Shown: positions 8,619-52,874 of the stretch, piece by piece
Position numbering within the stretch: the stretch's first letter is position 1
Layout: the number at the start of each line of letters is the position of its first letter
From: an uncultured bacterium
Lineage (GTDB): Bacteria > Hydrothermota > Tepidihabitantia > SM23-42
NCBI GenBank assembly: GCA_965603515.1
Contig: CBFDDH010000005.1
Coordinates: 27,886-91,885, forward strand
Reading direction: 5' to 3'
DNA length: 64,000 bases
Program-made: the position numbers and the translations under genes
Notes under the pieces: model-generated
What the model saw: the letters and a program-made list of their open reading frames with translations, nothing else
Databases searched by the model: none
Told to the model about the DNA's origin: nothing

Positions 8619-11600
8619 ATGAAAAGATCATTTATATTATTCATATCAATATTTACAGCATTCACATTATCATGTCAAAAAAAGAAAGCTTTTCAAGCTG
8701 GGTTTGAAATCCCGGAAGGACAAAAAAGAGACGTAGAAGTCCTCTATATAACACCGGAAGGCGGGACCGAAGGACTGAGTGAAGTAGGCGAAATACTCGT
8801 CTCCTTTAATCAGCCGATGGTTCCCCTCCAAGGCGTACCAGAATTTGAAAAGAGTGGACCACTTGAAATCAAACCGGAAATTAAAGGTAGATTCAGATGG
8901 CGCGGGACATCCACCGTATTTTTTATTCCGGATCAACCATTGGTCGGTGGAACCCAATACACATGCAAGGTTCCCAAAGGCACAAAATCCTTAACCGGAA
9001 CGCAGCTCAAAACAGACTACACCTGGCAGTTCACTACCGCACGACCACAGCTCAATACTTCGAACCCATATCACAATCAGAAATGGGTTGAGCTGGAGCA
9101 CAAAATATATCTTCTTTTCAATCAACCGATGTCACCGGGAAAAGTGAAATCCTTTATCAAGTTACTCGTGCGCGACGAAAAGAGTTTCGAAAAACCAGTT
9201 TCATTTAAAACACGATCCATGACTGACAAAGAGAAACAGGGGATCGGTGCCTACTGGAAATCAGAAAGAACGATCGTTATCAACCCAGACCAAGACCTGC
9301 CAATTGAAAGTGAGGTGATGATTAAATTGCTCGAGGGTTTACCCGGAGCTTCAGGTGACTATGGCATGGAACATGAACGAACCATAACCTTTCGAACCTT
9401 TAACTATTTTAGATTTGAGGGTCTTGATAATACTATACAAAACCCCCAGGAATCAGTAAGGTTCGAGTTCAGCAACCCCGTGGTATACCAGGATTTTATC
9501 AAACACATCAAATTTAACCCGGAAATAAAAATACCTGAGCATTATAAGAACTGGACACATTCCTCGACGCGACTCTATGTCTATGTAGACCTTAAACCCG
9601 ATACTAAATATCAAGTGTTTATTGACAAAGAACTGACTGACCGTTTCAACAATAAACTCGGTGAGGATATTGTCGCGACGTTCAAAACAACAGATTATGA
9701 ACCCCAGATCAAAATAGCTACTGGTCGCGGGATCGTTGAATCGTATTCAGCAAAGCGACATCCAATTACTGTTATCAATGTAAACCGGGTCGGTAAAAAA
9801 ATGGCGCTTTTGGAACGAAGTGAGATAATCCCCACGGTCCTTAGTAGTGGCGTATTTTATGGATGGCGCAAGTACAACCCGGTGTTTAATTATGACATTA
9901 ATGAAAAATGGAAAATCAATGGCGAAAGAAACAAACGGATCACGGTGCCACTTGAACTTAAGGATGTTCTACAGAACAAAGACGCTGGTTATGTTTTCTT
10001 TGAGATCGATGCATACAAAAAGCTCCGCTATGGGCGGCGATATTACCGAGGCTTACTCCAGATAACAAATATCGGCATTTCTGCTAAATTCTCGTCGGAA
10101 AATAATCTGGTATGGGTTACGACCTTGAAAGATGCCCAACCCCTCTACAATGCGCAAGTCGAATTACGTGACGATAAAAATCGCGTGCTCTGGCAAGGCA
10201 AAACTGACCAGGACGGTCTGGTCCAAACACCAGGGTGGAAACCATTAGGTCTAGTCCCCGAGAACGACTGGAACAAACCACGGATTTGGGTATTTGCCAG
10301 AAGCGGTAATGATGAAACATTTATTGTGTCAGATGAAGGCACTGGTGTTTATCCATATGAGTTTGGTATCTCATATGACTGGAGTCCTGAACCAGAGAAG
10401 TATCAAACTTATATCTTCACTGAGCGGGGTATCTACAAAAGCGGCGAAGATGTTTATATTAAAGGTATCATAAGAGAAAAACATAAGGGTACGTGGCGGA
10501 TATCCCGTAGTGTCAAAACCGTTGACCTCGAGATCTACAATTCGCGGGATGAACAGATATATAACAGGACAACCACTGTTTCAAAATATGGTTCCTTTGA
10601 CATCAAACTCCCTATTGCATCAGATGCTCCCACTGGTTGGTATGAAATAACTGCTGACCTACCTGGTGTTAAACCTAATTTCTACGGTTCATTCAGGGTC
10701 GAAGCTTACCGACCTGCACAATTCGAAGTAAAGGCACAGAGCGAAAAAGAAGAATACATCTTTGGCGATGAATTCGAGGGCGAAATAAAGGGGACTTATC
10801 TCTACGGCGGGCCGATGGCCGGAGAGAGTGCCGAGTGGATAATAACCCTTGATCATTCATATTATACACCACCTGGTCATAAAGGCTATCGATTTGGTCC
10901 ATCTTATTGGTACGATGATGAGGATTGGGAATTCGAAGGGGTTATTGGATCAGATGCTGGTGAACTTGACCAATATGGCAAAATGAAGCTACAAAAGAAA
11001 CTCGCTCAGGAAGATATACGAAGAACAATGCTACTTACTCTTGAAGGATCAGTGACTGCCGAAAATCGACAAACCCTTTCAGGACGAACAAATTGCCTGA
11101 TCCATTGTGGTGAGTATTATATCGGAATAAAACCCCAGAAAACGTTCATCGAAATAAAAAAATCAAGCCAGTTCGAGTTTATCACAACAAGACCCGATGG
11201 GGAATTGACCGTCAAGAAAAACATTAGCGTCGAGATCATCCGAAGGGAATGGATAAGTGTACGCAAAGCTGGTGTTGAAGGTAGATTCGAATGGATTACT
11301 GAGAAGAAAGACAGTATTGTCAGCAAATTCAAAGTGAAGACCAGCGAAAGTCCAGTCGCTAAGTCCTTTACGCCTGAAAGAACTGGCTTTTACATAATCA
11401 AAGCTCAGGGTAAGGATTCCCGTAACAATACCATCATTACGAGTACCTACTTTTACGTAACTGGTGCTGGCTATATATCTTGGCGAAGAAACGACGACGA
11501 CCACGTGGAGATTATCCCGGATGAAGAAAAGTACAAACCTGGCGATGTCGCAAAAATACTCGTTAAGTCGCCCTATGAAAAAACCCTTGCCTTAGTTACG

Positions 11601-14294
11601 ATCGAACGTGAGTTCATTATTGACAGATTTACTCAGGAGCTGATCGGATCGAGTGATCTCATTGAAATTCCGATTAATGAAAATTACTTACCCAATGTCT
11701 ACGTCTCGGTTATCCTCATCCAAGGTAGAAAAGGATTTGATAAATTTGATGAAGCAGGTAAGGATATTGGCAAACCATCTTTTAAAATTGGTTACACAAA
11801 TCTTAAGGTAGACCCTGGGACAAAACATCTTGATATTACAATTACTACTAACAAAGATGAGTATAGGCCTCAAGATTCAGTGATGGTGAAACTGAAGGTC
11901 GCTGACCATAAAGGTCAGGGGGTTAAATCAGAGATCATCCTCGCAGTAGTAGACGTTGGGGTACTGAACCTTATTGGTTTTGAAACACCTGACCCATTCC
12001 CCATGTTCTATGGCTCCAGACAACTCTCTGTACAAACTGCCGAGAGCCGACTGCATATTATAGGTCAAAGAACTTATGATGAAAAAGGCGAGAACCGTGG
12101 CGGCGGCGGAACAGCGGCGGCGCCCTTTGCCTACCGCTCTGAATTCTTGACAACCGCATATTATAATGCTCGTATCTATACGAATTCAAAAGGTGAAGCA
12201 GTAATACGCTTCAAATTACCCGATAACCTCACGACCTTCCGGCTCATGGCAGTCGGACACACTAAGGCCTCTTGTTTTGGTTCAAGTGATTCAAAGATCC
12301 GGGTGAAAAAACCGCTTTTGTTGCTTGAGGCATTACCCCGATTTGTCCGGCTCGGCGATGAATTCGAAGCCGGTATTGTTGTCCACAATAATACGAACGT
12401 TTCTGGTAACGTGGTGGTCGAAGCCTCGGCTGATAATATCACACTCGTTAATGAAAGCAAAGAAACGCTGGAAATCCCTGACGGTCAAGAAAAAGAAATA
12501 CGCTTTGAGTACCGCGCTCACCAGGTCGGTCAAGCAACCTTCAGATTCAAAGTGACCATGGGACAGGAATCAGATGGGGTTGAATTAAAAATACCCGTGA
12601 TCTCACCGCGTCTGACCGAGGCTGTTGCATTGTATAGCCAGACCATAGACAAAATCGCTGAAGCAATCACTGTACCAAAAGACATATACCCAGATGTTGG
12701 CTATATTGAGTTTACAACTTCGTCATCAGCGCTTGTCGGACTTGAAGGTGGTGTTGAATACCTTATTAAGTATCCGTATGAGTGTCTTGAGCAGAAGACA
12801 TCGAGGATTCTACCGTTCATCCTCGCTGAAGATTTAATCAATTCTTTTGACCTTTCTGAGCTGAAGGGCAAAGACCTTAGAAAAGAAGTCCAGAATACTC
12901 TAAAAGAATTCAAAGATTTTCAACATTACAATGGTGGCTTCAAGTTCTGGCCGGACTCCTGGTATCCATCACCATGGTTAACTGCTTATGCTGTAAATGT
13001 GCTCGCAAAAGCAAAAAAGAAAGGCTATTACGTTGACATGAACATGCTCAATAGAGCAATAGACTACTTGAAAGATGTACTACGCCGCAGCGATGTTGAT
13101 TGGGAATATCCCTATAATAAAAATGTTCAACTCACCACCAAATGCTTTATCCTGTATTCACTCGTGCTATGGGATGTCTACGACCACGGCTATATGTCCA
13201 GACTCTTTGACAAACGTGACCAGATCTCACTTTTTGGCAAAACCTTGTTGCTAAAATCAGCCCATATCTACGGAAATTCATATTACAGGAAAGAACTACG
13301 GAGGATGATCCTCAACAAAATACATATGGCATCGACTACTGCTCATTTTGAAGAACCGGATGCGATCGGCATGGCTTGGATATGGCACTCCAATGTCAGA
13401 ACTACTGCGCTTATTCTCCAGGCATTGCTCGAAACTGGCGGTGAATTTGCCAATGCGGAAAAGATAATCAAGTGGTTAGTAACCGAAAGGAAAATCGGTC
13501 GCTGGCGTTCAACTCAAGAAAATATCTATGTCTTTGATGCATTCAATACATATTTTAGAATCTACGAAAAACAAACCCCCGATTTCATGGCGACTGTCTA
13601 TCTTGAGAATAAGGAAATCCTAAAAGAAATCTTCAAAGGCAGGGAACTACAGATACGAAGAAAAGAAGTGGGATTAGGTGATCTGACAAAAGGCAAAAAA
13701 CTGCCGGTTAATATTGAAAAAAGTGGTGACGGACGACTATACTATGGTCTGCGCATGCTTTACGCCCCCACGCGCGAACTCAAACCACGGGATGAAGGTC
13801 TCGCAGTATTCAAAGTGGTGGAGCCGCTCGCTGAAGGACTCTCTGGTGATGAATTGAGCGCCGGTAAAATCTACAAGGTAACGCTCAGTATTGTTACGCC
13901 CCAAGAACGTAATTTCGTAGTAGTCGATGATCCGCTTCCAGCTGGTGTTGAGGTCATAAATACATCATTTGATACTGAAAGCAAACAACTCCTCAAAATG
14001 ATGGATGGTAACATGGACTACTATGATGAATATTATGTAGAAGATTATTACGGCGGTGAGTATGATGACTACTACTATTACTATCCATCATGGGGTACAT
14101 TCGACCACTGGGAAATCTATGATGAAAAAGTTCTTTTGTTTGCTGATGCCTTAAGAGCAGGCGAGCATACCTTCTCTTATCTCGTACGTGCAATGACATT
14201 TGGGAACTTTACAATGCCACCAACCAAAGCCGAGGAGATGTATACACCTGAGGTTTTTGGGTATAACAGGCAACGAAGACTGGTGGTCAAGTAG
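8619..14294 (+). CDS. Bacterial alpha-2-macroglobulin family lipoprotein (ECAM/YfhM-like) with an intact thioester motif
   Basis: 1891 aa. Signal peptide plus Cys (MKRSFILFISIFTAFTLSC). Thioester YPYECLEQKTSR (bacterial CLEQ form) around nt 12770-12800. Gly/Ala-rich putative bait region GENRGGGGTAAAPFAY about 230 aa upstream of the thioester. Many MG-domain-like beta-rich repeats. Unusual Tyr/Asp/Glu-rich C-terminal insert. Confidence 0.8.
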   Translation: MKRSFILFISIFTAFTLSCQKKKAFQAGFEIPEGQKRDVEVLYITPEGGTEGLSEVGEILVSFNQPMVPLQGVPEFEKSGPLEIKPEIKGRFRWRGTSTVFFIPDQPLVGGTQYTCKVPKGTKSLTGTQLKTDYTWQFTTARPQLNTSNPYHNQKWVELEHKIYLLFNQPMSPGKVKSFIKLLVRDEKSFEKPVSFKTRSMTDKEKQGIGAYWKSERTIVINPDQDLPIESEVMIKLLEGLPGASGDYGMEHERTITFRTFNYFRFEGLDNTIQNPQESVRFEFSNPVVYQDFIKHIKFNPEIKIPEHYKNWTHSSTRLYVYVDLKPDTKYQVFIDKELTDRFNNKLGEDIVATFKTTDYEPQIKIATGRGIVESYSAKRHPITVINVNRVGKKMALLERSEIIPTVLSSGVFYGWRKYNPVFNYDINEKWKINGERNKRITVPLELKDVLQNKDAGYVFFEIDAYKKLRYGRRYYRGLLQITNIGISAKFSSENNLVWVTTLKDAQPLYNAQVELRDDKNRVLWQGKTDQDGLVQTPGWKPLGLVPENDWNKPRIWVFARSGNDETFIVSDEGTGVYPYEFGISYDWSPEPEKYQTYIFTERGIYKSGEDVYIKGIIREKHKGTWRISRSVKTVDLEIYNSRDEQIYNRTTTVSKYGSFDIKLPIASDAPTGWYEITADLPGVKPNFYGSFRVEAYRPAQFEVKAQSEKEEYIFGDEFEGEIKGTYLYGGPMAGESAEWIITLDHSYYTPPGHKGYRFGPSYWYDDEDWEFEGVIGSDAGELDQYGKMKLQKKLAQEDIRRTMLLTLEGSVTAENRQTLSGRTNCLIHCGEYYIGIKPQKTFIEIKKSSQFEFITTRPDGELTVKKNISVEIIRREWISVRKAGVEGRFEWITEKKDSIVSKFKVKTSESPVAKSFTPERTGFYIIKAQGKDSRNNTIITSTYFYVTGAGYISWRRNDDDHVEIIPDEEKYKPGDVAKILVKSPYEKTLALVTIEREFIIDRFTQELIGSSDLIEIPINENYLPNVYVSVILIQGRKGFDKFDEAGKDIGKPSFKIGYTNLKVDPGTKHLDITITTNKDEYRPQDSVMVKLKVADHKGQGVKSEIILAVVDVGVLNLIGFETPDPFPMFYGSRQLSVQTAESRLHIIGQRTYDEKGENRGGGGTAAAPFAYRSEFLTTAYYNARIYTNSKGEAVIRFKLPDNLTTFRLMAVGHTKASCFGSSDSKIRVKKPLLLLEALPRFVRLGDEFEAGIVVHNNTNVSGNVVVEASADNITLVNESKETLEIPDGQEKEIRFEYRAHQVGQATFRFKVTMGQESDGVELKIPVISPRLTEAVALYSQTIDKIAEAITVPKDIYPDVGYIEFTTSSSALVGLEGGVEYLIKYPYECLEQKTSRILPFILAEDLINSFDLSELKGKDLRKEVQNTLKEFKDFQHYNGGFKFWPDSWYPSPWLTAYAVNVLAKAKKKGYYVDMNMLNRAIDYLKDVLRRSDVDWEYPYNKNVQLTTKCFILYSLVLWDVYDHGYMSRLFDKRDQISLFGKTLLLKSAHIYGNSYYRKELRRMILNKIHMASTTAHFEEPDAIGMAWIWHSNVRTTALILQALLETGGEFANAEKIIKWLVTERKIGRWRSTQENIYVFDAFNTYFRIYEKQTPDFMATVYLENKEILKEIFKGRELQIRRKEVGLGDLTKGKKLPVNIEKSGDGRLYYGLRMLYAPTRELKPRDEGLAVFKVVEPLAEGLSGDELSAGKIYKVTLSIVTPQERNFVVVDDPLPAGVEVINTSFDTESKQLLKMMDGNMDYYDEYYVEDYYGGEYDDYYYYYPSWGTFDHWEIYDEKVLLFADALRAGEHTFSYLVRAMTFGNFTMPPTKAEEMYTPEVFGYNRQRRLVVK

Positions 14295-14572: not shown

Positions 14573-15514
14573 TCATGCAGAGGAAGTCGAGAAGTTGCTA
14601 GCAAAATATACGGCGCCGAGTATCCCCGCGTCGTCGCCGAGCTTACCCGGGATGATCTTGAACTTACGGTATTGAGCACCCATGATTCGCTGCTCTGCTG
14701 TCTTTCTCATCGATTCAAACAGGACCTTTCCTGCCCTTGAGATACCTCCTGAAACAATAATCACCTCAGGGTCAAACAAAGAGATGATATTCGATAAACC
14801 GACACCGATATAGAACCCGATCTCAGTAAATATCTCCTTGGCAAGAGCATCACCCCTTTTTGCTTCTTGTGCAATAATACGTGGCGTTATCTTTTTGTAT
14901 TTTCTCAGGCTACTTTTCCGTTTTTTCATCCGGCGGCGTGCACGTGCAACGATATAGCACGCACCTACATATCCCTCAAGATGACCAAACTGATTGCAAG
15001 TACATCTTTTACCATCATACTTGATCACGGAGTGACCAAACTCACCGGCAAACCCGTTTGCGCCAAATAATAGCTTTCCTTCGCATACCGCAGCACCGCC
15101 GACACCCGTGCCAAGAGCAAAAAGGAATATATTATTGTATCCCTTGCCCGCACCGAATTTCCATTCACCTAAGCATATCGCATTCACGTCATTGAGGATC
15201 TTTACTGGCACTTTAAATTTCTTATTAATTGTCTGGGCAAGCTCTACATTAGTCCAGCCGGCAAAATTAGGTGAGTATCTCACAATACCTTTTTTTGAAT
15301 CAATAATGCCTGCAATACCGATACCGATATGTGATATTGGTTTTGTAAAGGTCTGAATAGCATTTTTAATCTGATCGACGACAGCACCTGGCCCCTGCTC
15401 AGCATGGGTCAAAACTTTTACTCGTTTGATGATCTTGTCATCTCTTACAAGTGCAGACTTTATATTTGTCCCGCCGACGTCCACACCAATGCAATATCTC
15501 TTACCCATGGTCAT
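14573..15514 (-). CDS. ROK-family sugar kinase (glucokinase-like)
   Basis: 313 aa. IGVDVGGTNIK ATP motif. ROK signature with CxCGxxGCLE-like zinc motif (CTCNQFGHLEGY). Contains a basic insert ARARRRMKKRKSSLRKYKK. Confidence 0.8.
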   Translation of the reverse strand: MTMGKRYCIGVDVGGTNIKSALVRDDKIIKRVKVLTHAEQGPGAVVDQIKNAIQTFTKPISHIGIGIAGIIDSKKGIVRYSPNFAGWTNVELAQTINKKFKVPVKILNDVNAICLGEWKFGAGKGYNNIFLFALGTGVGGAAVCEGKLLFGANGFAGEFGHSVIKYDGKRCTCNQFGHLEGYVGACYIVARARRRMKKRKSSLRKYKKITPRIIAQEAKRGDALAKEIFTEIGFYIGVGLSNIISLFDPEVIIVSGGISRAGKVLFESMRKTAEQRIMGAQYRKFKIIPGKLGDDAGILGAVYFASNFSTSSA

Positions 15515-15557
15515 ATCATAACTGTAAATACATCACCAAACTAAACTCCTTTATAGA

Positions 15558-15713
15558 TTATTTCTTTTGTTCTTTGTTGGCGTCTTTCTCTTTTATAATA
15601 CGAATACTATTGGAACCGCACTTGGGGCATTGCCTTTCTATCATCTTACCTTTTTCATAAGGGTATTTATTAATTGCGCCGCATCTCAAGCACTTGAAGT
15701 CTTTTTCTTCCAT
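15558..15713 (-). CDS. 51-aa zinc-ribbon protein (CxxC-N17-CxxC). Below the ORF-track size cut-off. Last gene of the hdr operon.
   Basis: Manual translation: MEEKDFKCLRCGAINKYPYEKGKMIERQCPKCGSNSIRIIKEKDANKEQKK. GGAGG sits 6 nt upstream of the ATG (complement 15713..15711). Confidence 0.5.
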   Translation of the reverse strand: MEEKDFKCLRCGAINKYPYEKGKMIERQCPKCGSNSIRIIKEKDANKEQKK

Positions 15714-15857
15714 GCTTTAACCTCCTGCTTAGTAAATCTGGGGGCATTGCGAATAACCGAAGGAAGCATGGCAATCTCATCTTCTTAAAACAGTCGAGAT
15801 TGCTTCGTCGTCCCACCCTTCCAAGATTGGCGGGATTCCTCGCAATGACACAACCAA

Positions 15858-18335
15858 CTATTGCTTCTGCTTAAGCTTTTCCAGTTTTTGTTTTTTCTTC
15901 TCTTCTTCTTCGGTTAAAACCTTGATCGTATGTTCGATCTCCTCTTTGGTAACCTTTTTTCGTAATTCTTCGACATCCTGCATGGTTTTCTGGAATCTCT
16001 TGCCTTCTGCCGCGCTGATCCATTCAAGCAACAACCTTTCTGGACGTATCCCCAATTTTTCCAATTTATCCCAGAGCTTCTCTACCCTCTTCTGGGTCCA
16101 GCGGTTAGCATCGATGTAGTGACAGTCAACATAATGACACCCAGATACAACAACCATGGGCGCACCGTTTCTAAATGCACTGAGGATGAATTCTTCATGG
16201 ACCCGTCCGCTGCACATCGTGCGGATGAGTCGCTGGTTGGATGGATACTGTAATCGGGCTCCACCACATGTATCAGCACCTGCATATGAACACCAGTTGC
16301 AAGCAAAAACGATCACCTTATCCTGTGGGTCTTCAGTCAGATGTGCATCGATCTGGGTTATGATTTGATCGTCTGTAAAATGTTTCATCGAAAGTGCACC
16401 AAAACGACATTCAGCTGCACACGTGCCGCAGCCTTTGCATAAAGCTTCAACATAGGTGATCGTTTTATTCTTCGGATCGACCGTGAAAGCATTATAAGGA
16501 CAAACTTTCGAGCACATAGCACAGTATCGGCAGAGATCCTGATTCAAGGTTGATGTTATCGCCTCGAGTTTGACCTTACCTGCAGAAAGCAATGTTTCAG
16601 CCCGTGCTGCCGCTGCACTCGCCTGAGTAACCGAATCCTTCACATCCTTGGGCGCTTCAGCACAACCGGCAAAGTACACTCCAGTCGTAGTTGCATCAAC
16701 AGGTTTTAGTTTCGGATGTGCCTCCATAAAGAAACCGTCCGGGCTCTTGGATAGCGTAAGGAGTTTCTGCACCTCGGGCATATCAAGTCTTGGTGTCACG
16801 CCAACAGAAAGTACCATCATATCAAATTCATGTTCTTCGATTTTATTGGCCGTGGTATCCTCAACCATAACCTTTAAATCGTGTGTCTTTGGATCCTCAA
16901 TTATATCACCAGGGATACCTCTGATATATGCAACACCGGCTTCCTTGCTGCGTTTGAAAAGATCTTCAAAACCTTTACCAAATGCTCTAATATCGATGTA
17001 AAAAACTTTGGCTTCAATGTCAGGATAGTGGTCTTTCAGTAATAATGTGTCCTTGATCGTGTTCATACAACAGATATTACTGCAGTATGGTTTGCCGATC
17101 TTCTCGCACCGGGATCCGACACATTGAATAAAACCAACGGTCTTGGGTCTTTTTCTATCGGTAGGTCTGATAAAATGGCCGTCTGAAGGTCCACCTGCTG
17201 ACATAAGCCGTTCATATTCCATGCTTGTTATGACGTTTTCGTATTTTGTATAACCGTATTCATCTAATTCTGTAGGATCATACACATCCATACCAGTAGC
17301 AACGATTACCGTACCTACATCAAATTTAATAACCTCATCTTTCATGTCGTAGTCAATACATTTCTTGTCACATTTCTCAGCACATTTACCGCAGGCGATC
17401 GGATTTATGCCAAGACAGGATTCCATATCAATGATTGAAGCAGAGGGTATGGCCTGAGGGAACGGGATATAAATCGCCTTGCGACATGAGAGTCCCTGTT
17501 GATACTCGTCAGGGATGATCACCGGACAGACTTCAGCACAATCACCACATGCTGTACATTCTTCTGCGTTTACATAACGGGCTTTCTTGAGCACATTAAC
17601 ATGGAAATTCCCCACGTAACCCGAGATAGATTCTACCTGGCTATGTGTTAAGAGTGTTATGTTGGGATGTCGACCGACATCCATCATTTTCGGACCGAGT
17701 ATTCATATCGCACAATCCATAGTAGGATAGGTCTTTGCCAGCTGAGCCATTATACCACCGAGAGCTGGGTTTTTCTCAACCAGATATACTTTGTAACCAG
17801 CATCAGCAAGATCAAGACTTGATTGCATACCAGATATGCCACCACCGATAACGAGCGTTGCTTTAGTCACTGGTATTTCTGTCTCATCCTGAGCTTCGAG
17901 ATAACGAGCTCGAGCAATATAAGCTTTCATAATATCTTTTGCTTTCTTTGTCGCGGCTCCACGATCGTCCATATGAACCCAAGAACATTGTTCACGGATA
18001 TTCGCCATATCAACGAGATAAGGGTTAAGACCTACTGAAGAAACACACTCCCGAAATGTCGGCTCATGCATACGTGGCGAACATGCAGCAACAATAACAC
18101 GGTTGAGTTTTTGTTCTTTGATCGCCTTTTTTATCTCTGCTTGCCCAGGTTCAGCACACATATATCGGTTCTTTGCCGTGTATACGACATTACCGATTTC
18201 TTTAGCATCCTCGACGAGTTTGTCGACATCGACTGAACCAGCTATATTCGTACCACATTCGCACACAAAAACACCAATCCTTAAATCATCCTGCGGCACT
18301 TTAATCACCTCCTTTGTGGATAAGGTTATCCTCAA
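15858..18335 (-). CDS. hdrA: HdrA (heterodisulfide-reductase subunit A family flavoprotein) with a C-terminal MvhD domain. Selenoprotein: the in-frame TGA at 17703-17705 is read as Sec. The ORF track splits it into 17703..18335 and 15858..17687.
   Basis: Across the TGA the protein reads ...[26 protein letters not shown]. This aligns to the canonical HdrA ...[25 protein letters not shown], where Sec takes the place of the second Cys. N-terminal CxCGxNI 4Cys domain. GGGISGMQSSLDLADAG FAD motif. Multiple CxxCxxCxxxCP ferredoxin motifs. C-terminal MvhD (FACNWCSYAGAD...VVSGCHYVDCHY). Confidence 0.8.
17665..17682 (-). promoter_or_regulatory. SECIS-like hairpin in the mRNA: GGAUGUC-GGUC-GACAUCC (7-bp stem, GGUC loop), 20 nt downstream of UGA 17705..17703
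   Basis: Perfect stem. The GGUC apical loop resembles the SelB-binding loop of the E. coli fdhF SECIS. The identical 18-nt sequence occurs after the second in-frame UGA, at 25630-25647. Confidence 0.55.
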
Positions 18336-18338
18336 TCT

Positions 18339-19223
18339 TCATACTTTCACACTTCCATTTATCTTCTCCAATACTTTGTCTGCTTTTATTCGATGGGTAT
18401 GCAGACCAACCTGCTCGACAGTCAAACCCTGTGCAAGACCGAGCAGCTGGAAAAGATAAATAACCGGAATATTATAGCTCTTTCCCTTTTTACGGGATAT
18501 CATTATTTGACCTAAATCAAATGAAGAAAAACATGTCGGGCAGATCAAACCCATACAATCAGCACCACTTTTCTCGATCGATGCAAAGATCGCTTCAGTC
18601 ATTTCCAAGGGCAGTTCATCATCCATACATCCTTTTCCGCAACATAATACTTTTTCATGATGTTCAAGCGGGATTGCACCCATGGCAGTTATAAAGTCTT
18701 CAAGTATATCCGGGTAATCAGCATCATCAACATGCATAACCTGACTCGGTTTTAATATGTGACAACCATAATGAATCGCCACGGTAATTTCTTCAAGGGA
18801 TTTTTTTATTGATTTCTTTACTGCTTCGAGACCAAGATCATCTCTTATCATCTCAACGGCATGCTTTATTATTATCTTACCTTTATATTCCCGATTAATT
18901 CTCTTCAATCGTTTATTCACCTCATCTTTCAATGCTGGGTCTTCATTAAGGAGAAATTGTGCTTCTTTCAGAGTTGAGATACACCCGGAGCACATCGTAA
19001 TCAGCATATGTCCAGTCTCTTCAGCTACCGCTAAATTTCGAGTGGCCGTTACCAACCATTTCATCTTATCACGTGACTTGAAGTAAATAGGATCGGGGCA
19101 ACATGTAAAATTTTCAATATCAACAAGCTCAACACCTAATAGCGGTAAAGTGTTTCTCAGTGCCAATTCCATTTGAGGGTATTTGAGAGGCATCATACAA
19201 CCCCAGAAAGGCACGACCTTCAT
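18339..19223 (-). CDS. hdrB: HdrB-like subunit (two CCG cysteine-rich domains)
   Basis: 294 aa. CCPD...C and LCCGKGC / CPTC motifs typical of HdrB CCG domains. Confidence 0.75.
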   Translation of the reverse strand: MKVVPFWGCMMPLKYPQMELALRNTLPLLGVELVDIENFTCCPDPIYFKSRDKMKWLVTATRNLAVAEETGHMLITMCSGCISTLKEAQFLLNEDPALKDEVNKRLKRINREYKGKIIIKHAVEMIRDDLGLEAVKKSIKKSLEEITVAIHYGCHILKPSQVMHVDDADYPDILEDFITAMGAIPLEHHEKVLCCGKGCMDDELPLEMTEAIFASIEKSGADCMGLICPTCFSSFDLGQIMISRKKGKSYNIPVIYLFQLLGLAQGLTVEQVGLHTHRIKADKVLEKINGSVKV

Positions 19224-19273
19224 GATCGTACCACGGCTTTCTTTTCACATAATTCAATCAACACAGCAGCTCC

Positions 19274-19795
19274 TTATTTATCGATCGTTTCATCGGCTGG
19301 TGTTACTTCTTTATCTTCAAGGATTGTATTTAACTCATCGATCGGGATCGTCTTCAGTACTGGAAGCCCTAATTGCTCTCTTCTTCTGTTGATTGCTGAA
19401 GATACTGTCACACTCATGCCGGTTTTCGCAATATTATCTGAAAGCTTGGCCAAGTTGACAGGTGCAGTTCCTTTTTCTACGGCCATGTTCTTGAGGGCAA
19501 CAATCACCTCAATAGGACGCACGTCCTGCGGGCATCTTTCATAACAGGAATAGCAATTCGTACAGAGCCATATCGCTGAATCCTGACCCAGGAGTTCTTC
19601 TTCCATACCCAACAATGCCTTTAATAATATTTTTCGCGGGTTGAACTCTTTTGAAAACCTTGCGGTTGGACAGACTGCAACACAGGCACTACATTGATAG
19701 CAATAGTTATGATGCTTTCCGCCGGATACCTTATTTAGCTTTTCGCGAAATCGGTAATTTACTACTATTTTATCTTTTGCCATTTTAGCCACCAT
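19274..19795 (-). CDS. hdrC: HdrC-like 4Fe-4S dicluster subunit
   Basis: 173 aa. CYQCSACVAVCP and CTNCYSCYERCP. Confidence 0.75.
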   Translation of the reverse strand: MVAKMAKDKIVVNYRFREKLNKVSGGKHHNYCYQCSACVAVCPTARFSKEFNPRKILLKALLGMEEELLGQDSAIWLCTNCYSCYERCPQDVRPIEVIVALKNMAVEKGTAPVNLAKLSDNIAKTGMSVTVSSAINRRREQLGLPVLKTIPIDELNTILEDKEVTPADETIDK

Positions 19796-20927
19796 CTAAC
19801 AAATCTGCAATAAGCGTAACCAATTGGATGGTTTCAATCTTCACATCCTCACCTACTTTATCATCCTTCATCGCACAATTAAAGTGAATCTCACATTTTG
19901 GGCAAGCCAGCACCAAAAGGTCTGCTCCAGTCTGTTTTGCCTCTTTCAAACGTGCAAGTTGTATACTCTTCGAATATGTAGAACAGTTAATCCATGCACT
20001 GACACCACAACATATTGCACTCTTTCTGCTTCTTGCCATTTCTTTCAATTCCAATTGTGGAACCGAAGTAATGGCTTTTCTTGGTTCATCATAAATACCA
20101 AGATGCCTTCCAAGTCTGCAGGGATCCTGATAAGAAACGGTTTTGGCGAGTTCCTTAAGTTTTATTTTTCCTTGATCGATCGCTTCAGCTATGACTTCAG
20201 TAATATGTTGCACTTCAAAATTGCATTCAAAATATTTGGGATAATCAATTTTGAATGTCCGATATCCCTCAGGACACGAAAAAATAATCTTTTTTACCCC
20301 TACTTTATTGATTTCATTAATATTGTATTGCGCCAGTCTTTTGAAATTATCCAGTTCTCCACCCCATAAGAGATCATGTCCACAACAGCGTTCATTGGGT
20401 AACACTACTGGTGTGATACCTAAATGATTGAGAATTTTTATGCTGGCTTTGGCAGCTTTTATTGTATTGATCTCGATATCTTTAAAAAGGACATCAAAAT
20501 AAGGCAAGCATCCAACGAAATATAGTGTCTCACCTGATCCGGCAACCTTCAAATCATTATCGATCCAATCCATGCGTTTCTGTTGAAGATCTGGTGTCGA
20601 CATAATACGCATCAATGATTGTGCAGCACCACCATGCGAACAGATCGCTTCTTCACCGATTTTCTGTGCTTCCTGACGGGTAGCAAGGGTCAGATCGATA
20701 TAGTCGATATTGGCCGGACATCTTTCATCACAGAGTTTGCATGTCAAACAAGCCCAGATATTCTTGTCCTTTAATAACTCAAGCTGACCACTACGAATTG
20801 CTTTATTAACTAATATGCGTGGCGAATAGCCATGATTAAATCGTGATATTGGACATGAACCCGTACATTTACCGCATTCAAGACATAAATAAGCTCTGGA
20901 TTCTTTTATCGCCTTTTTAATACTCAC
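19785..20927 (-). CDS. HdrD-like fused iron-sulfur (HdrC-type) + two-CCG-domain (HdrB-type) protein
   Basis: 380 aa. CLECGKCTGSCP and CLTCKLCDERCP, followed by CCGHD... and CCG-type motifs (ICCGVSAW, CPKCEIHFNC). Confidence 0.7.
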   Translation of the reverse strand: MSIKKAIKESRAYLCLECGKCTGSCPISRFNHGYSPRILVNKAIRSGQLELLKDKNIWACLTCKLCDERCPANIDYIDLTLATRQEAQKIGEEAICSHGGAAQSLMRIMSTPDLQQKRMDWIDNDLKVAGSGETLYFVGCLPYFDVLFKDIEINTIKAAKASIKILNHLGITPVVLPNERCCGHDLLWGGELDNFKRLAQYNINEINKVGVKKIIFSCPEGYRTFKIDYPKYFECNFEVQHITEVIAEAIDQGKIKLKELAKTVSYQDPCRLGRHLGIYDEPRKAITSVPQLELKEMARSRKSAICCGVSAWINCSTYSKSIQLARLKEAKQTGADLLVLACPKCEIHFNCAMKDDKVGEDVKIETIQLVTLIADLLDGG

Positions 20928-21385
20928 TTTACATCCTCAACCTGATTATCTGATACTTTAATGACCTTCTTAATGGAACTCGGACCAAGTTTTCTGATCG
21001 TCGCGGTGAATGCTTGAGCAACCTTGGCAAACTTTGTGGCTTCGGCCGATGAAATCCAATCAAGCATGAGTCTTTCTTTTTCAATACCGATCATCGCAGT
21101 AAGTTGCTCAGTGATCTTGTGAACATCAGCTGCCTTTTTTGCACCAAACATATAATGACAATCTTCAAAATGGCATGTGGCAACCAAAACACCATCAGCA
21201 CCCAATTCAAATGCCTTCAAAACCAACCCCGGGGTCACTCTGCCACCGCACATAACCCGCACAATGCGGATATTTGTAGGATATTGAAGTCGCGAAACAC
21301 CCGCACCATCGGCAGCTGGATAAGAACACCAATTGCAGCAGAATGCGACTATCTTTGGCTCAAAATTCTCCTTTGGTAAATCCAT
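20924..21385 (-). CDS. mvhD: Stand-alone MvhD (methyl-viologen-reducing hydrogenase delta subunit-like) [2Fe-2S] electron-transfer protein
   Basis: 153 aa. FCCNWCSYPAADGAG...RVMCGGRV...VATCHFEDCHY. Confidence 0.8.
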   Translation of the reverse strand: MDLPKENFEPKIVAFCCNWCSYPAADGAGVSRLQYPTNIRIVRVMCGGRVTPGLVLKAFELGADGVLVATCHFEDCHYMFGAKKAADVHKITEQLTAMIGIEKERLMLDWISSAEATKFAKVAQAFTATIRKLGPSSIKKVIKVSDNQVEDVK

Positions 21386-21431
21386 TATTTAATCATTCAA
21401 CCTTTCAACCATTTTGTAACCATTCAACTAT

Positions 21432-24400
21432 TTAACCAAATAATGCTTCCAGCTGTGCTTCGATTTGTTCGCTCATGAAATGTTTCAAGTCAATTGCACC
21501 GGTCGGGCAAGCAGGTACGCAAGTTCCACAACCTTTACACAGTGCTTCATTGACCTGGGCGACAAAAATACCTTTTTCTTTTTCAATAAGTTCAATTGCA
21601 TGGAATTCACAGACTTCTGCACACCGACCACAACCGCGGCAATAGACCTCATCAACGATCGATGTTATCGGTGCCAGACTTATTTTATCACGGCTCAGCA
21701 GTCCAGACACTTTCGATGCAACTGCGGATGCCTGAGATATTGAATCCCCAATGTCTTGCGGGAATTGACAACAACCACATAAAAACACTCCTTCAACTGT
21801 AGTTTCAACCGGACCGAATTTCGAATGACGTTCCAGGAAGAATTTATCTGGACCCCTTGGTACTTTTAATAACTCAGAAAGGCGCAAAGAATCCTCAGCA
21901 GGAACCATGCCTACGGAAAGCACAATGAGGTCGACTGGCACACTGATCTCAGCATTGAGGTCCACTGACGAAACCGTTATCTGGTTAGCCATATCAGTAC
22001 CGGAAATCTCCGGTTCATCCTCATACGGTAAAAAGAGCACACCTAATTCCCGTGCTTTCCGATACATCCGTTCGGCACCTTTTGAATAAACCCTGACGCC
22101 GCGGTTTAATATCGCGACATCAATGCCTTTTTCTTTAAGATATATCGCCTCTTTTATTGCGGCTTGACAACAGTATCGAGAACATCCTGGATTACCAGCA
22201 TCCCCTCTCGACCCAACGCACTGTACAAAGGCAACTGATTTGATATTCTTAATATCACCCTTCAGGATCTTCTCTTCCAATTCCATATTGGTTATCACAT
22301 TCTTATATCGACTATAACCATATCTTTGGGCTGGATCGTAAAGACTAGCCCCAGTAGCTAAAACAATAGCACCTACTGTAAATTCGGTTTCTTTTCCTTT
22401 AATGTTCAGTTTTACCTGAAAATTCCCAACATAACCAGTGACATCTGTCAGCTCTGCAGAAATTAAGAATTCGCCACCTGCTTTGGTGAATTCATCGATC
22501 AATTTAGTGATAATGTCTTTACCCGGCTTGAAACTTGGATAAATACTCGATAAATCACGCACCAAACCGCCGGGAGCTTCATTCTTCTCAATGATCTTAA
22601 CCTTAAAGCCACGCAAAAGCAGGTCAAGTCCACACCTTAACCCGGTTATGCCACCACCGATTATTGCAACATCCCGGTTAACTGACAGTTCTTTCAAGTA
22701 GAGCGGTTTGAGTTCTCTGACACGCGCGACTGACATTCTTACCAATTCCTTGGCCTTGGCAGTTGCTTTTTTAGGTTCTTTCTGGTGCACCCACGAACAT
22801 TGATTTCTAATATTCGCGATATCGAAAAGGTAAGGATTTAGACCAATCATAGTCAACGAATCCTGAAAACTCGGTTCATGTGTTTTAGGCGTACAGGCAG
22901 CGACCACGACTCTATTGAGTTTGTTTTCGGCGATACGCTCCTGCAGCTTACGTTGGTCAGTTTCTGAACAGGCGAAAGTATAATCTTCCGCAAAAACCAC
23001 CCCCGGCAAAGTCTTGGCATATTCTACTACTGACTTCACATCAACGACCTTTGAAATATTGGGTCCACAATGGCAGACAAAGACACCGACTCTTGGCGGT
23101 CCGGAAATATCGACTTGTTCGATATCTGGCTCTTCAATCTCCAGTTCTTGTCCTTTGAGAAAAAGCGATGCTTTAACCGCTGCTCCGCTGGCTTCAGCGA
23201 TCGAGTCAGTAATGTCTTTGGGCCCGGTTGCACATCCGCAGACCAAAATTCCTTGTTTCGTGGATTCCAGAGGTTTAATTGCTGGCTCTGCATTCTTGAA
23301 AAAGCCATCTTGGTCAGTTTCAACACCAAGCACATCGGCCAGTTCCTGGCAACCATTGGGTGGGATCAAAGCTGAAGCTAAACAGACAGCGTCAAAAACC
23401 ATTTTTGATGAGTATCCCTGGTCGTCCTCATAATGAATGATCAAATCACCATTTTCATCTTCAATGACCTTGGATGGCTTTCCTTTAATATATTTCACGC
23501 CTTTTTCTACTGAACGATTATAGAATTCTTCAAAACCCTTACCAAATGCCCTTATATCAATATAGAACACAGTGATTTCAATATCTGGATAGTGTTCTTT
23601 CAATACCAGACTGTCTTTTATCGTATTCATACAGCATATGCGACTACAATAATTAATATCCCGGCGCATATTACGTGAACCAACACATTGAATAAATGCA
23701 AAACGGATAGGTCCTTTTCTTTCTTTGTCAAGAGCAAGTTCACCATTAGTTGGACCATCTTCACTCATTATTCTTTCCAGCTCAAAAGAGGTATAGATAT
23801 TTTTGAAACGTTTATAACCATATTCACTCGCTTCTTTAGGATCGAGATAATCGATTCCCGTCGTCACAACGATCGAGCCAATATCAAGATCAATGAATTC
23901 ATCTTCCATGTCATGAACAATAGCTTGAGGCTCACAGGCCTTTACACACTCCAAGCACTCAGCACACCCTGCGCAGTTGAGACAGCGGTCAGCTTCTTTT
24001 TTTGCTTGTAGTGCAGAAAATCCCAGCGAGACTTCATCAAAACTCTTTTTGGACTTTTCCAGATCAAGAACTGGCATTTTTTTCCGAGCGGTTGTCTCGA
24101 GACCATCCGGTATATCGATGTCTTCATCCACAACGCGCGCCGGTTTTTTCTCTCTTCCTTCTTTAAGATCAACTCCTCTAATGAATCTATCTATTGATTC
24201 AGCAGCTTCTTTCCCCGCTGCAATTGCCTCGATTACGGTTGCTGGTCCGGTCACAACATCACCACCAGCAAAAACGCCAGCAATAGTTGTTTGCAGTGTA
24301 TCTGGGTCAACTTTGAATGTTCCCCAGCGTGTTAACTCAAATTGATTTTCCTTGTTTAGAAATGAAACATCGACAGCTTGACCAATTGCCATAATAACCA

Positions 24401-25835
24401 TATCAAGATCTATGGTGAATTCAGAACCTTCAATTGGTACCGGTCTTCTTCTTCCCGAGGCATCTGGTTCACCAAGTTGCATCTTTACACACTCTATCCC
24501 GGTAACCTTGCCATCTTCACCAAAAACCTTGGTTGGCGCCGCCAAGAAATGGATTTTAATCCCTTCCTTCTCAGCTTCCAGCACTTCTTCTTCATTAGCC
24601 GGCATCTCTCGCTGTGACCGGCGATATACAATAAAAACTTCTTCTGCACCTAAACGCAAAGCAGTACGGGCAGCATCAATCGCGGAATCCCCACCGCCAA
24701 TCACAGCAACTTTTTTACCAACCGTGGTCTTATCGTCCATAATCGTTTTTTTAAGAAACTCGACACAGAATTCCACCCCCTTTAAATCCTCACCTTCGAT
24801 CCCCATGGATTTTTCCTTTGCAGCGCCTACGCCAAGGAAGATTGCCTTAAAATCTTGATCGAAGATATCTTGAATTCCGAAATCTTTACCAAGCGCAATA
24901 CCGGTTTTAATCTCAACACCCCAGCTCTTTATATAATCTAAATCGCGTTTAAGGGATTTTTCAGGTAACCTGAATCTGGGGATTGCCCAGTATAGGAGTC
25001 CTCCAGGATGATCAGTGGCTTCATAGACGGTTGAGCAGTACCCTTGTTTAGCAAGAAAATAGGCAGCCGACAAGCCAGCAGGTCCAGCACCAATAATGGC
25101 GATTTTTTCTTTGGTCAATTTTGGCATTGCCGCTGGTTCATTATCTACTGGTTCTTGGTCAGCAATGAAACGTTTTAACTGTGCTATTGCTAAAGGTTCA
25201 TCAATATCTTTACGTTTACACTCTGATTCACAAGGGTGAGTGCATACTCTTCCGCAAACTGATGGAAAGGGATTGTCACGTCTTTCTAAATCCAATGCTT
25301 CCTGTGATTTACCTTGAGATATAAGAGCAACATAGCCCTGCACATTAACCCCAGCCGGACAAGCATACCGGCACGGTGACCATCCTTTTTTATCAATAAT
25401 GAATTTATTCGGAACGGCTTGCGGATACTGACGGTATATTGCCTCATGCTTCGACAAATCCAGTTCAAACTCGTTGTCGAGTTTCACTGGACAAACTGAA
25501 GGACATTCACCACAGCCAGTACACTTATTCCAGTCAACATAAGTGGATTTGTGTTTGATCTTCACTTTAAAATTTGGAGCTTCCCCGTCGACTTGAACCA
25601 CTTCGCTGTTTGTGAAAAGTTCAATGTTCGGATGTCGACCGACATCCATTAACCGAGGACCGAGGATTCAACCAGTGCAATCCATCGAGGTGAAGATCTT
25701 ATGGATTTGTGAAGTCCGACCGCCAAGACATGGACCATGCTCAATAAGATAAACCTTAAAATCAGCATGTGCCAAATCCAAAGCTGATTGGATACCAGCC
25801 ACCCCTCCACCGATTACTAATGCTCCTTTTTGCAT
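21432..25835 (-). CDS. HdrL-like giant flavoprotein: HdrA N-terminal FAD module (with Sec), an NfnB/GltD-like NAD(P)H:ferredoxin module, a second HdrA-like module, and ferredoxin domains. The ORF track starts it at 25649, after the Sec codon.
   Basis: Real start is ATG at complement 25835..25833: [56 protein letters not shown](TGA 25670..25668)[14 protein letters not shown]. GltD-like CRYACPAG...[13 protein letters not shown] plus [19 protein letters not shown] and [16 protein letters not shown] Rossmann folds. Second HdrA core [19 protein letters not shown]...[12 protein letters not shown]-terminal 2x[4Fe-4S]. Confidence 0.75.
25630..25647 (-). promoter_or_regulatory. SECIS-like hairpin GGAUGUC-GGUC-GACAUCC, 20 nt downstream of UGA 25670..25668
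   Basis: Identical at nucleotide level to the hairpin at 17665-17682, with the same spacing from the UGA. Confidence 0.55.
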
Positions 25836-25866
25836 TATTTTTATCTATTCCTTTCTTAGATTAAAA

Positions 25867-26424
25867 TTATTGTGGATCCTTTTGTTTTTTTAGAAGTTCA
25901 AGACCAAAATTATAGCCGTGTTTAAAAGCCTTTATGTTTAAATCCAGAGCTTTTTCAGGAACTGAGCCAGGCAAAGCCTTTTCCATGGCTTCGCATGTCA
26001 CTATCCCGGTTATCGCAGTGAAGAACCCCAACATAACAACATTAGCCACAATTTTCTTGCCGAGCTGTTCAGCAAAACGCGTTGCCGGAATAAGATGGAC
26101 CTTAATATTCCCCCGGGGTGACTTGTGCTTCACTAAATTTTCGTCAACGAGTAATATACCGTTTTCTTTGAGTTCCGGTTCGAACTTATCATAACCCTCC
26201 TGGGACATGACAACCAAAACATCAGAATTAGTGACATATGGATATAGTACTTTGGTTTCTGATACCACGAGCTGAGAGCTGCAAGCACCACCCCTTGCTT
26301 CCGGGCCAAAGGATTGACTCATTGTACCATATTTGTTATCATAAAGCGAAGCTGCCTTACCGACAATTATCCCGGATCTTATAATACCTTGACCACCGTA
26401 ACCGGCGAATCTAATCTCCGCCAT
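25867..26424 (-). CDS. 2-oxoacid:ferredoxin oxidoreductase gamma subunit
   Basis: Likely start MAEIRFAGYGGQGIIRSGIIVGKAA (GGAGG 5 nt upstream), not the longer track ORF. Gamma/PorC-like fold. Confidence 0.7.
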   Translation of the reverse strand: MAEIRFAGYGGQGIIRSGIIVGKAASLYDNKYGTMSQSFGPEARGGACSSQLVVSETKVLYPYVTNSDVLVVMSQEGYDKFEPELKENGILLVDENLVKHKSPRGNIKVHLIPATRFAEQLGKKIVANVVMLGFFTAITGIVTCEAMEKALPGSVPEKALDLNIKAFKHGYNFGLELLKKQKDPQ

Positions 26425-27196
26425 TTTTGCCTCCGGGATCCGCTCCTGATCTGATTCCATGTGGGGTGAATTTCTCTCCCAACACACTGCTGAGCTGAGC
26501 ATTATATTGGTCGATAAATGTTGGTCTTTCTTTGCTTGTGAATTTGCCCACGATAATTTTGCTATCCGGTTTGATCCCCACATTCTTCGGGTCTTCACTA
26601 TTCCTTATCTCCGAGTTATCATAGTAAAAACGTACCAGATCAATATTCACCTTGCTAATACTGGTATAATAGTCAGGGCCTGGCGCCAGAATTTCAATAA
26701 CTGACAGACCTTTTTTGCCCAATGCCTCGGCAATCGAAGCGGCGAGTTCCTCAGTATGCAAAGCTGTCCAACGTGCGGTATATATTGCACTGCACGAGTT
26801 TCCAAGATGTGGGATATTGAATGGTTCTTCAAAGGTTGAATAGGGTGAGAATTTCTGAGCCGCAGAGGGTACTGATTTACCGGCGATTTTTCTGTACACA
26901 AAATTATTAATACATATCACCGTAAGTTCCATATTTCTTCGACTGCCATGCACAAAGTGATTGCCACCGATCGTCATAAGGTCACCTGCGAAGGGGACAA
27001 CTTTGAGAGCAGGGTTGGCTAATTTTAGACCAGTTCCAAAAGCAATGGCTCGACCGCGTGTCGTATGGAAATAATCAAAACCGAACCGTTTGACTGTCTC
27101 TGGTTCAAACAAAATGTCTGAAGGCACACAAACCTGGTCAGGTTTCACCCCAGCCTTTTCAAGGGCTTGGGCAAATGTCGTGATTATTTCATTCAT
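26411..27196 (-). CDS. 2-oxoacid:ferredoxin oxidoreductase beta subunit (TPP-binding), copy 2
   Basis: GDLMTIGGNHFVHGSRRN (TPP Mg-binding GDG-like). 261 aa. Confidence 0.8.
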   Translation of the reverse strand: MNEIITTFAQALEKAGVKPDQVCVPSDILFEPETVKRFGFDYFHTTRGRAIAFGTGLKLANPALKVVPFAGDLMTIGGNHFVHGSRRNMELTVICINNFVYRKIAGKSVPSAAQKFSPYSTFEEPFNIPHLGNSCSAIYTARWTALHTEELAASIAEALGKKGLSVIEILAPGPDYYTSISKVNIDLVRFYYDNSEIRNSEDPKNVGIKPDSKIIVGKFTSKERPTFIDQYNAQLSSVLGEKFTPHGIRSGADPGGKNGGD

Positions 27197-51989: not shown

Positions 51990-52368
51990 CCGTGGGGGAA
52001 ATATGAAAAACAAAGGCATTTCTGGTTTTGGCGCCATCATAATAATACTAATTATACTGGTAATTGGATATGGCGCCTATCAAATCTTCAGGGTCCACCT
52101 GACCCGCAGCACAATCGCGGAAAAGGTTACACATGCTGCAAAGATTGGTTATGCAATGCGGGATAATGAAATAATCAACCAGCTTACGAAAGAAGCAAAA
52201 GAGGCTAACGTTATGTTGAACCCGGATTCAATTTTCATCGATCGAACGGTAACGGATTCATTGAGGATTTATGTTGCTTATGATGATTCAACCAGTATTC
52301 TGGGATTATTCACATATTCGAAACATTTTGTTGTCGATAAAATAGAGCTAATTGAGATCAAATTCTAA
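51958..52368 (+). CDS. Small membrane-anchored hypothetical protein (likely start at M 52003)
   Basis: Single N-terminal TM (ISGFGAIIIILIILVIGYGAYQIF). Confidence 0.4.
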   Translation: MKKINGSIVNNRGGNMKNKGISGFGAIIIILIILVIGYGAYQIFRVHLTRSTIAEKVTHAAKIGYAMRDNEIINQLTKEAKEANVMLNPDSIFIDRTVTDSLRIYVAYDDSTSILGLFTYSKHFVVDKIELIEIKF

Positions 52369-52874
52369 TGCTCCGGACGCCAGTCCTGCTGTTAAACCAA
52401 AACTATGAACCATTAACGATATTGCGCGTCAAAAGGGCGATTACATTACTGATTTTAGATAAAGTAGACCTCATAGAAAACATAGATGGTATCCTGATTC
52501 ACACCATCAGTATTACGTACCGCGTTCCATCAGTGATCAGGCTGAAGTATTATGTCTGCATCAAACGTAAAGAAATATCATTGACCAAGAAGAATATTAT
52601 CAAACGCGATAATCATCAATGTCAATACTGCGGTAAGAAAACCGGTATTATGACAACCGACCATATAATACCTAAAGCCCTCGGTGGAAGTGACACATGG
52701 GAGAACCTTGTATGCGCGTGTCTGGAGTGCAACAACAGAAAAGGAAATCGGGTACCAAAGGATGCTTCAATGAAACTATTTAGAAAATCGAAGAAACCGA
52801 ATTATTTCACTTTCGTGTTGAATGAATTCGGTCCGCCCAAAACAAAATGGCGACCCTTTCTATTTCAATCATAG
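52368..52874 (+). CDS. HNH endonuclease family protein
   Basis: 168 aa. NHQCQYCGKK...TTDHIIPKALGGSDTWENLVCACLECNNRKGN (HNH with zinc-finger Cys pairs). Confidence 0.8.
   Translation: MLRTPVLLLNQNYEPLTILRVKRAITLLILDKVDLIENIDGILIHTISITYRVPSVIRLKYYVCIKRKEISLTKKNIIKRDNHQCQYCGKKTGIMTTDHIIPKALGGSDTWENLVCACLECNNRKGNRVPKDASMKLFRKSKKPNYFTFVLNEFGPPKTKWRPFLFQS

Follow-up and report, generated by a model that had tools for sequence, protein, structure and literature searches.

A probable bacterial selenocysteine insertion sequence within two paralogous hdrA-type coding regions from candidate division WOR-3

HdrA proteins with selenocysteine (Sec) in a CxxU motif form a long-known family of selenoproteins, with members in Deltaproteobacteria, Clostridia and methanogens (PMC1794560, PMC9312934). 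The bacterial selenocysteine insertion sequence (SECIS) elements that direct such recoding are described by the bSECIS model of Zhang and Gladyshev as stem-loops with a loop of 3-9 nt, a stem of 4-16 bp, a G in the first two loop positions and a minimum free energy (MFE) of at most -7.5 kcal/mol (PMC13188914), with 16-37 nt separating the UGA from the apical loop (PMC13188914, PMC10778597). Typical SECIS hairpins have a 6-8 bp stem and a conserved loop G (PMC4605307). In E. coli fdhF the conserved positions are a bulged U17 and the loop bases G23 and U24, of which U17 and G23 have been described as SelB binding sites (PMC8659212), while structural modelling of SelB on the ribosome suggests that variable spacing is allowed by a hinge between winged-helix domains 2 and 3 (PMC4605307). 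Here we describe an 18-nt hairpin found downstream of in-frame UGA codons in two hdrA-type genes of an uncultured bacterium (GCA_965603515.1, contig CBFDDH010000005.1, positions 27,886 to 91,885; this 64,000-nt stretch is called the window, and coordinates count from its first letter). The hairpin is very probably a bacterial SECIS that lies within the coding sequence of both genes, which are paralogs and belong to a WOR-3 bacterium. This reading is supported by the comparison of sequences across genomes and not by folding energy. The features concerned are as follows.

15858..18335, minus strand: hdrA-mvhD fusion gene of ~825 codons, translated with one in-frame UGA read through
17703..17705, minus strand: predicted Sec codon UGA of hdrA-mvhD in the motif DCAI-U-ILGP (CxxU), aligned with the Cys of DCSIC in full-length homologs
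17665..17682, minus strand: candidate SECIS hairpin, copy 1, GGAUGUC-GGUC-GACAUCC, starting 20 nt and with its loop 27 nt past the UGA
21432..25835, minus strand: hdrL-like gene of ~1467 codons, translated with one UGA read through
25668..25670, minus strand: predicted Sec codon UGA of the hdrL-like gene in the motif DCTG-U-ILGP (CxxU)
25630..25647, minus strand: candidate SECIS hairpin, copy 2, identical to copy 1 in its 18 nt and its 20-nt offset, and kept in 7 further Sec-type hdrL loci

Both genes are interrupted by a single UGA, with 211 and 614 codons of open reading frame (ORF) on either side in hdrA-mvhD and 55 and 1411 codons in the hdrL-like gene. Homologs have Cys at the UGA position (DCSIC); both proteins are homologous to HdrA, and the predicted Sec takes the second Cys position of the CxxC/U motif. 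The hdrA-mvhD product contains FlpD/MvhD, Fer4 and FAD/NAD-binding domains (Pfam), and its closest genome loci belong to metagenome-assembled genomes (MAGs) of candidate division WOR-3, with protein identities of 88% and 86%. The hdrL-like product is composed of an HdrA N-terminus, a GltD/NfnB-like insert, the remaining part of HdrA and a second HdrA-like module, and its homologs are named 'heterodisulfide reductase subunit A-like polyferredoxin'. The C-terminal third of this protein (21432-22900), which forms the second HdrA-like module, has no CxxC/U segment at the homologous place and probably lacks that redox site. No other HdrA-like module is present in the window, and this one is unsuited as a non-Sec control from the same genome.

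An earlier, sequence-only reading of this DNA had placed both hairpin copies and quoted them as RNA; they are present at the positions listed above, the quoted RNA corresponding to the minus strand. The 18-mer GGATGTCGGTCGACATCC has exactly two exact matches in the window, both on the minus (coding) strand, and a search with its reverse complement GGATGTCGACCGACATCC lists both sites again, on the plus strand and with two mismatches. The mean over dinucleotide shuffles is 0.02 matches, and none of them reaches 4. From the last base of the in-frame TGA to the first G of the hairpin there are exactly 20 nt in both genes, just as had been claimed. The proposed overlap with the MDVGRHP segment was likewise borne out: the hairpin translates as M-D-V-G-R-H-P in both paralogs, with identical codons, and both copies fold into a perfect 7-bp stem with a GGUC loop and no bulge. 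In 38-nt contexts, the MFE is -10.5 kcal/mol for copy 1 and -13.6 kcal/mol for copy 2 (z = -2.4 and -2.7). The 4-nt loop, 7-bp stem, GG at the start of the loop, 27-nt spacing and these energies all lie within the bSECIS ranges, and as stem-loops within an ORF directly after an in-frame UGA the two elements show nothing outside that model. The generic model does not predict the near-invariant sequence seen in hdrA and hdrL genes, which arises because the hairpin overlaps a conserved peptide. Compared with the minimal 17-nt upper stem-loop of E. coli fdhF, the window hairpins have the same GGUC apical loop, a similar stem length and a similar location in the coding region past the UGA. The likeness to the fdhF loop suggested by the sequence-only reading therefore stands as far as the GGUC is concerned, since the fdhF SECIS sequence was verified as an exact match at fdhF in 5,413 records (5,426 E. 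coli genomes checked).

The strongest support for a function in UGA recoding comes from Sec-type and Cys-type orthologs of hdrA-mvhD. A protein search returned two classes of homologs, one of ~600 aa starting at M(M)DVGRHP and one of ~815 aa that is full-length with DCSIC and mostly contains the same MMDVGRHP peptide. The start of the shorter class at M(M)DVGRHP shows that these proteins were cut at the UGA by gene callers. At the DNA level, 80 reference genome loci were fetched and the motif was located in 79, with TGA in 65 and TGC or TGT in 14. All 65 TGA orthologs, which are labelled as at least 13 phylum-level groups, carry GAUG[U/C]C-GGUC-G[A/G]CAUC (GATGYCGGTCGRCATC) at an unchanged offset that puts the loop 27 nt past the UGA. 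The hairpin is present in none of the 14 Cys orthologs, although 10 of them encode MDVGRH (in the remaining four, either the Asp or the Val codon differs), and is thus exclusively associated with UGA. The window holds no Cys-type hdrA with the MDVGRHP peptide, and the comparison with non-Sec hdrA genes that had been suggested for this element was run across genomes.

Codon usage within the hairpin follows the same division. In the 66 Sec genes, a set made up of the 65 loci and the gene of the window, third positions are invariant (entropy 0 bits) at Asp GAT, Val/Ala GTC/GCC, Gly GGT and His CAT. Most degenerate codons on either side reach ~1-1.9 bits; for example, four different Gly codons occur at +3 and four Pro codons at +4. 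The five codons from Asp to His have entropies of 0.94-1.73 bits in the 14 Cys genes, as exemplified by GGACGTGGGACGCCATCC and GGACGTAGGACGTCACCC. The variable stem position covaries, with Val GUC accompanied by Arg CGA (U-A) and Ala GCC by Arg CGG (C-G); the pair at alignment columns 41-48 is U-A in 43 sequences, C-G in 18 and U-G in 2, with 1 mismatch. A neighbour-joining tree of the proteins shows the C-G state at no fewer than 8 distinct places, and this scattering indicates that the double change arose repeatedly. At the closing C-G pair the permitted U-G wobble is never used, and the loop is GGUC in 66/66 Sec genes. No lower stem or extension beyond the 6-7 bp hairpin is conserved according to RNAalifold. 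The proposal of RNA-level selection is thereby strengthened, with invariant synonymous sites and compensatory changes among the TGA orthologs. Sequence-specific recognition of the stem was considered as a cause of the invariance and rejected: the conserved peptide, the pairing, and the loop with its closing pair together explain all invariant bases, so no special explanation is needed.

The immediate surroundings of the UGA also differ between the two forms. The codon before the UGA (window 17706-17708) is AUA in 63/66 Sec hdrA-mvhD genes vs 6/14 Cys forms, and the codon after it (window 17700-17702) is always Ile (AUH) in Sec forms and mostly Val (GUN) in Cys forms, such that the context AUA-UGA-AU (alignment A2 columns 10-18) is far more constrained than the adjacent codons of the Sec genes. 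The hdrL genes are looser around the UGA, that of the window reading GGU-UGA-AUC. On the tree, the Cys-type genes form two clades among the Sec-type genes, one of Chloroflexota/Dehalococcoidia and one of Bacteroidales (loci L022, L034, L035, L047, L051, L058, L061, L063, L066, L077 and L079; and L039, L048 and L060). This placement suggests that there may have been two replacements of Sec by Cys, each followed by complete erosion of the hairpin.

The hdrL family displays the same pattern in a smaller sample. With the C-terminal ORF of the window gene as query, the search retrieved the identical protein, 24 close relatives of 79-90% identity and a further ten that are more distant. Each of them begins with (M)MDVGRHP or MDAGRHP. 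In full-length Cys forms the peptide is a different one, for example LVDCGRHR. TGA and the hairpin at the same offset are found in 8/8 Sec-type hdrL loci (the window, L161 and L165-L170), and the hairpin in 0/2 Cys-type hdrL genes encoding VDVGRHP, whose codons are GAC-GTC-GGG-AGG-CAT and GAC-GTG-GGA-AGA-CAT. Two of the Sec-type loci have variant loops, namely L165 (579-645; GGAUGCC-GGCA-GGCAUCC, Arg AGG) and L166 (582-648; GGAUGUC-GGUA-GACAUCC, Arg AGA). Both retain the stem and the first two loop G's, and differ in the third and fourth loop bases. These loci come from two related MAGs in which selB lies directly upstream of the Sec-type hdrL (L165, 1-58; L166, 1-323, with hdrL at 601). The encoded SelB proteins of 639 and 634 aa have GTP_EFTU, GTP_EFTU_D2 and Beta-barrel_SelB domains, and the hdrL products are 65% and 59% identical to the window protein. 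Among three 'truncated' HdrL-like proteins, P0231 is a true Sec form; P0203 and P0207 were rejected as such, since both are Cys forms, P0207 being cut by the contig end. A metagenome scan with the HdrL alignment picked up generic FAD-binding patterns and mostly distant GltD-like loci, few of which were useful.

Several observations weigh against the interpretation of the hairpin as a SECIS. None of selA, selB, selC or selD is encoded in the 64-kb window, and no SECIS family of Rfam is matched at gathering score across the whole window or at E <= 10 in positions 15000-27000. The window hairpins start 20 nt past the UGA, whereas that of fdhF starts 11 nt past it; counted from the U of the UGA, GGUC occupies nt 22-25 in fdhF and nt 31-34 in the window, ~9 nt further. 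The bulged U17 in the 5' arm of fdhF has no counterpart in the perfect window stems. Neither of these two differences from fdhF had been mentioned in the sequence-only reading. The loops GGCA and GGUA of two hdrL loci show that GGUC is not absolute. When the sequence downstream of the UGA codons was folded, as the sequence-only reading had recommended, the 7-bp stem with its GGUC loop did form, but over 66-nt contexts the fold energy was no better than that of shuffles (z = -0.2 and -0.3). Finally, the palindrome partly pre-exists in the protein code, because 3 of the 7 pairs are dictated by amino acids (Met-G/Pro-C, Asp-G/Pro-C and Val-G/His-C). Perfect hairpins with a 7-bp stem and a 4-nt loop are also not rare in the window (18 strand-instances vs ~8 expected), and the hairpin alone is consequently not significant; its significance comes from its repetition after both UGA codons and its conservation across genomes.

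The partly amino-acid-fixed palindrome raises the possibility that the semi-palindromic peptide M-D-V-G-R-H-P, written in common codons, yields a hairpin with no function at the RNA level. GAT, GGT and CAT are indeed the commonest codons for their amino acids in the window, and the peptide is conserved in Cys homologs too. The remaining 4/7 pairs, in contrast, rest on synonymous codon choice, and CGA is a rare Arg codon in the window (13%), so that given the peptide and the codon usage of the window the set GAT-GTC-GGT-CGA-CAT has a probability of ~0.007 per gene. The decisive point is the Sec vs Cys comparison, which excludes such a coincidence for all practical purposes: Cys orthologs with the identical peptide vary at synonymous sites and never show the hairpin, while 65/65 Sec orthologs keep it, with compensatory changes, across genomes of very different GC content. 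It is also highly improbable that the 18 nt have stayed identical only through shared ancestry, by recent horizontal transfer or gene conversion, without selection. The occurrence of Sec-type genes in many phyla and their patchy tree do suggest transfer, and transfer of an HdrA operon has been proposed earlier (PMC1794560). However, the third positions flanking the hairpin are near saturation, the proteins are only 63-88% identical, and the codons on both sides of the hairpin differ between the two paralogs of the window. When only 16-18 nt are conserved and their surroundings are saturated, the cause is selection and not recency.

A function of the hairpin that does not involve SelB is harder to dismiss than these two, and is still unlikely. 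The hairpin could slow the ribosome or hinder release factor 2 so that a near-cognate tRNA or Sec-tRNA reads the UGA, or the palindrome could be bound by a protein as DNA. Such a role would be compatible with a spacing that exceeds that of E. coli, with the missing bulged U and with the variant loops of the two hdrL loci. On the other hand, the loop and the closing C-G pair are conserved beyond the needs of pairing, as the unused wobble at that pair illustrates, and they obey the G-G/U rule for the loops of SelB-dependent elements (PMC13188914); selB moreover adjoins the Sec-type hdrL in two MAGs, and a DNA palindrome would leave the strict link to UGA unexplained. The origin of the window also bears on the kind of element to be expected. 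Its other genes are bacterial, including those for UvrA, PstSCAB-PhoU, TatC, PilT, PurH and proteins with sorting tails of the type IX secretion system (T9SS). In a host that is plainly bacterial, a SECIS within the ORF directly after the UGA is expected, and not an archaeal element in the 3' untranslated region (3'-UTR).

If the hairpin is a SECIS, as we consider very probable, it would form in the mRNA as the ribosome approaches, and its 7-bp stem would present the GGUC loop 27 nt past the UGA. If the analogy with E. coli and Moorella holds, SelB, carrying GTP and Sec-tRNA-Sec, would bind this loop through its C-terminal winged-helix domains while the hairpin is located where the mRNA enters the ribosome. 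With the UGA in the A site, the codon would then be read as selenocysteine and not as a stop, and the outcome would be HdrA proteins in which CxxU replaces CxxC. The in-frame UGA codons, the hairpin and its restriction to UGA genes, the pairing constraint and the fit to the bSECIS model are results of the sequence analysis; binding of SelB and the actual insertion of Sec are predicted from known systems.

The window genes share their protein family and the position of Sec in CxxU with the Sec-HdrA of Deltaproteobacteria/Clostridia and of Methanococcales (PMC9312934, PMC1794560). They differ from archaeal hdrA genes, which use SECIS elements in the 3'-UTR, and from other Sec-HdrA in their architecture, the genes of the WOR-3 and FCB type being either joined to MvhD or enlarged to HdrL. 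Four loci hold a second subfamily of bacterial Sec-HdrA, with the motif FPTNDCAM-U-(I/V)ISPKLVEVGRHLN and the hairpin CUGGUCG-AGGU-CGGCCGG, which starts 15 nt past the UGA and has its loop at 22 nt. Its sites are as follows.

L085, 1437: second-subfamily Sec site
L087, 2326: second-subfamily Sec site
L089, 2650: second-subfamily Sec site
L092, 2205, plus strand: second-subfamily Sec site
L092, 2728, minus strand: second-subfamily Sec site

L092 therefore holds two Sec genes of this subfamily on opposite strands. The different hairpin of the second subfamily implies that the SECIS RNA is not homologous across HdrA subfamilies, though it lies on a homologous peptide region. A rough search for SECIS elements across the fetched loci, all of them included, was dominated by noise that came from overlapping frames; one genuine fdhA stood out. 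This metagenomic gene (L094, 3082-3130; …IDHCARL-U-HSPTVAG…) has a classical SECIS, GGUGGCC-GGUC-UGGUCACC. Its core, GCC-GGUC-UGG, shares the GGUC loop and a G+C-rich stem with the hairpins described here and nearly matches the GCC-GGUC-GGC variant of hdrA, but it belongs to another gene family and its loop lies at most ~20 nt past the UGA (19 nt in the scan) vs 27.

Taken at its simplest, the locus adds an unannotated and very clean case to a mechanism and a selenoprotein family that are both known. We would tentatively raise a broader proposal, which we think is possible though on balance doubtful, namely that the hairpin represents a discrete, sequence-invariant SECIS class (GAUGYC-GGUC-GRCAUC, loop 27 nt past the UGA, no bulged U) that is absent from Rfam. 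As a portable 'Sec cassette' common to hdrA-mvhD and hdrL across more than a dozen phyla, it would have spread with the Sec-type gene and been eroded repeatedly where Sec became Cys. If this were true, the signal for recoding would be carried along within a conserved segment that codes for peptide, and a wide range of SelB proteins would be able to use it.

The two selenoprotein genes and the genes between them (18339..21385) form one hdr/mvhD cluster. The intervening genes, assigned by Pfam, are listed below.

20924-21385, minus strand: mvhD, between both selenoprotein genes
19785-20927, minus strand: CCG/Fer4 hdrD-like gene, between both selenoprotein genes
19274-19795, minus strand: hdrC-like gene, between both selenoprotein genes
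18339-19223, minus strand: CCG hdrB-like gene, between both selenoprotein genes

Upstream of the hdrL-like gene, in place of the selB of L165 and L166, the window encodes subunits of a 2-oxoacid:ferredoxin oxidoreductase. A scan of the window for an in-frame UGA followed by a G-loop hairpin revealed no further selenoprotein genes. Elsewhere, a 1891-aa ORF (8619-14291, plus strand) is without an NCBIfam match, and two large proteins (40212-41702 and 41715-45506, both plus strand) end in T9SS type A sorting domains, which are consistent with an FCB-group/WOR-3 origin. For a 168-aa ORF (52368-52871, plus strand), the match to IscB/Cas9-type models is limited to their HNH nuclease segment (E = 1e-16 for positions 180-243 of the IscB profile), and the ORF appears to encode a small stand-alone HNH protein.

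The chief value of these observations is practical. Public protein sets hold the hdrA-mvhD product from M(M)DVGRHP onwards, with ~600 instead of 825 aa, and the hdrL product with 1405 instead of ~1467 aa; the internal ATG starts in the window are at 17687 and 25649. The N-terminal FAD-binding piece is annotated as a separate gene of 55-83 aa (for instance, L161 1050-1217, L167 264-431 and L168 418-585). Gene splitting of this kind affects at least 26 hdrA-mvhD clusters and at least 35 hdrL clusters in our searches. Sec-type hdrA genes can be recognised simply and with high specificity by the 16-nt core. The two forms of the gene also provide a natural experiment on overlapping protein and RNA constraints, in which the same peptide is encoded by free synonyms when the residue is Cys and by frozen, covarying codons when it is specified by UGA. 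For the organisms themselves, the systematic mis-annotation conceals the active-site CxxU of these proteins, and with it selenium use by WOR-3 and by many further uncultured anaerobes.

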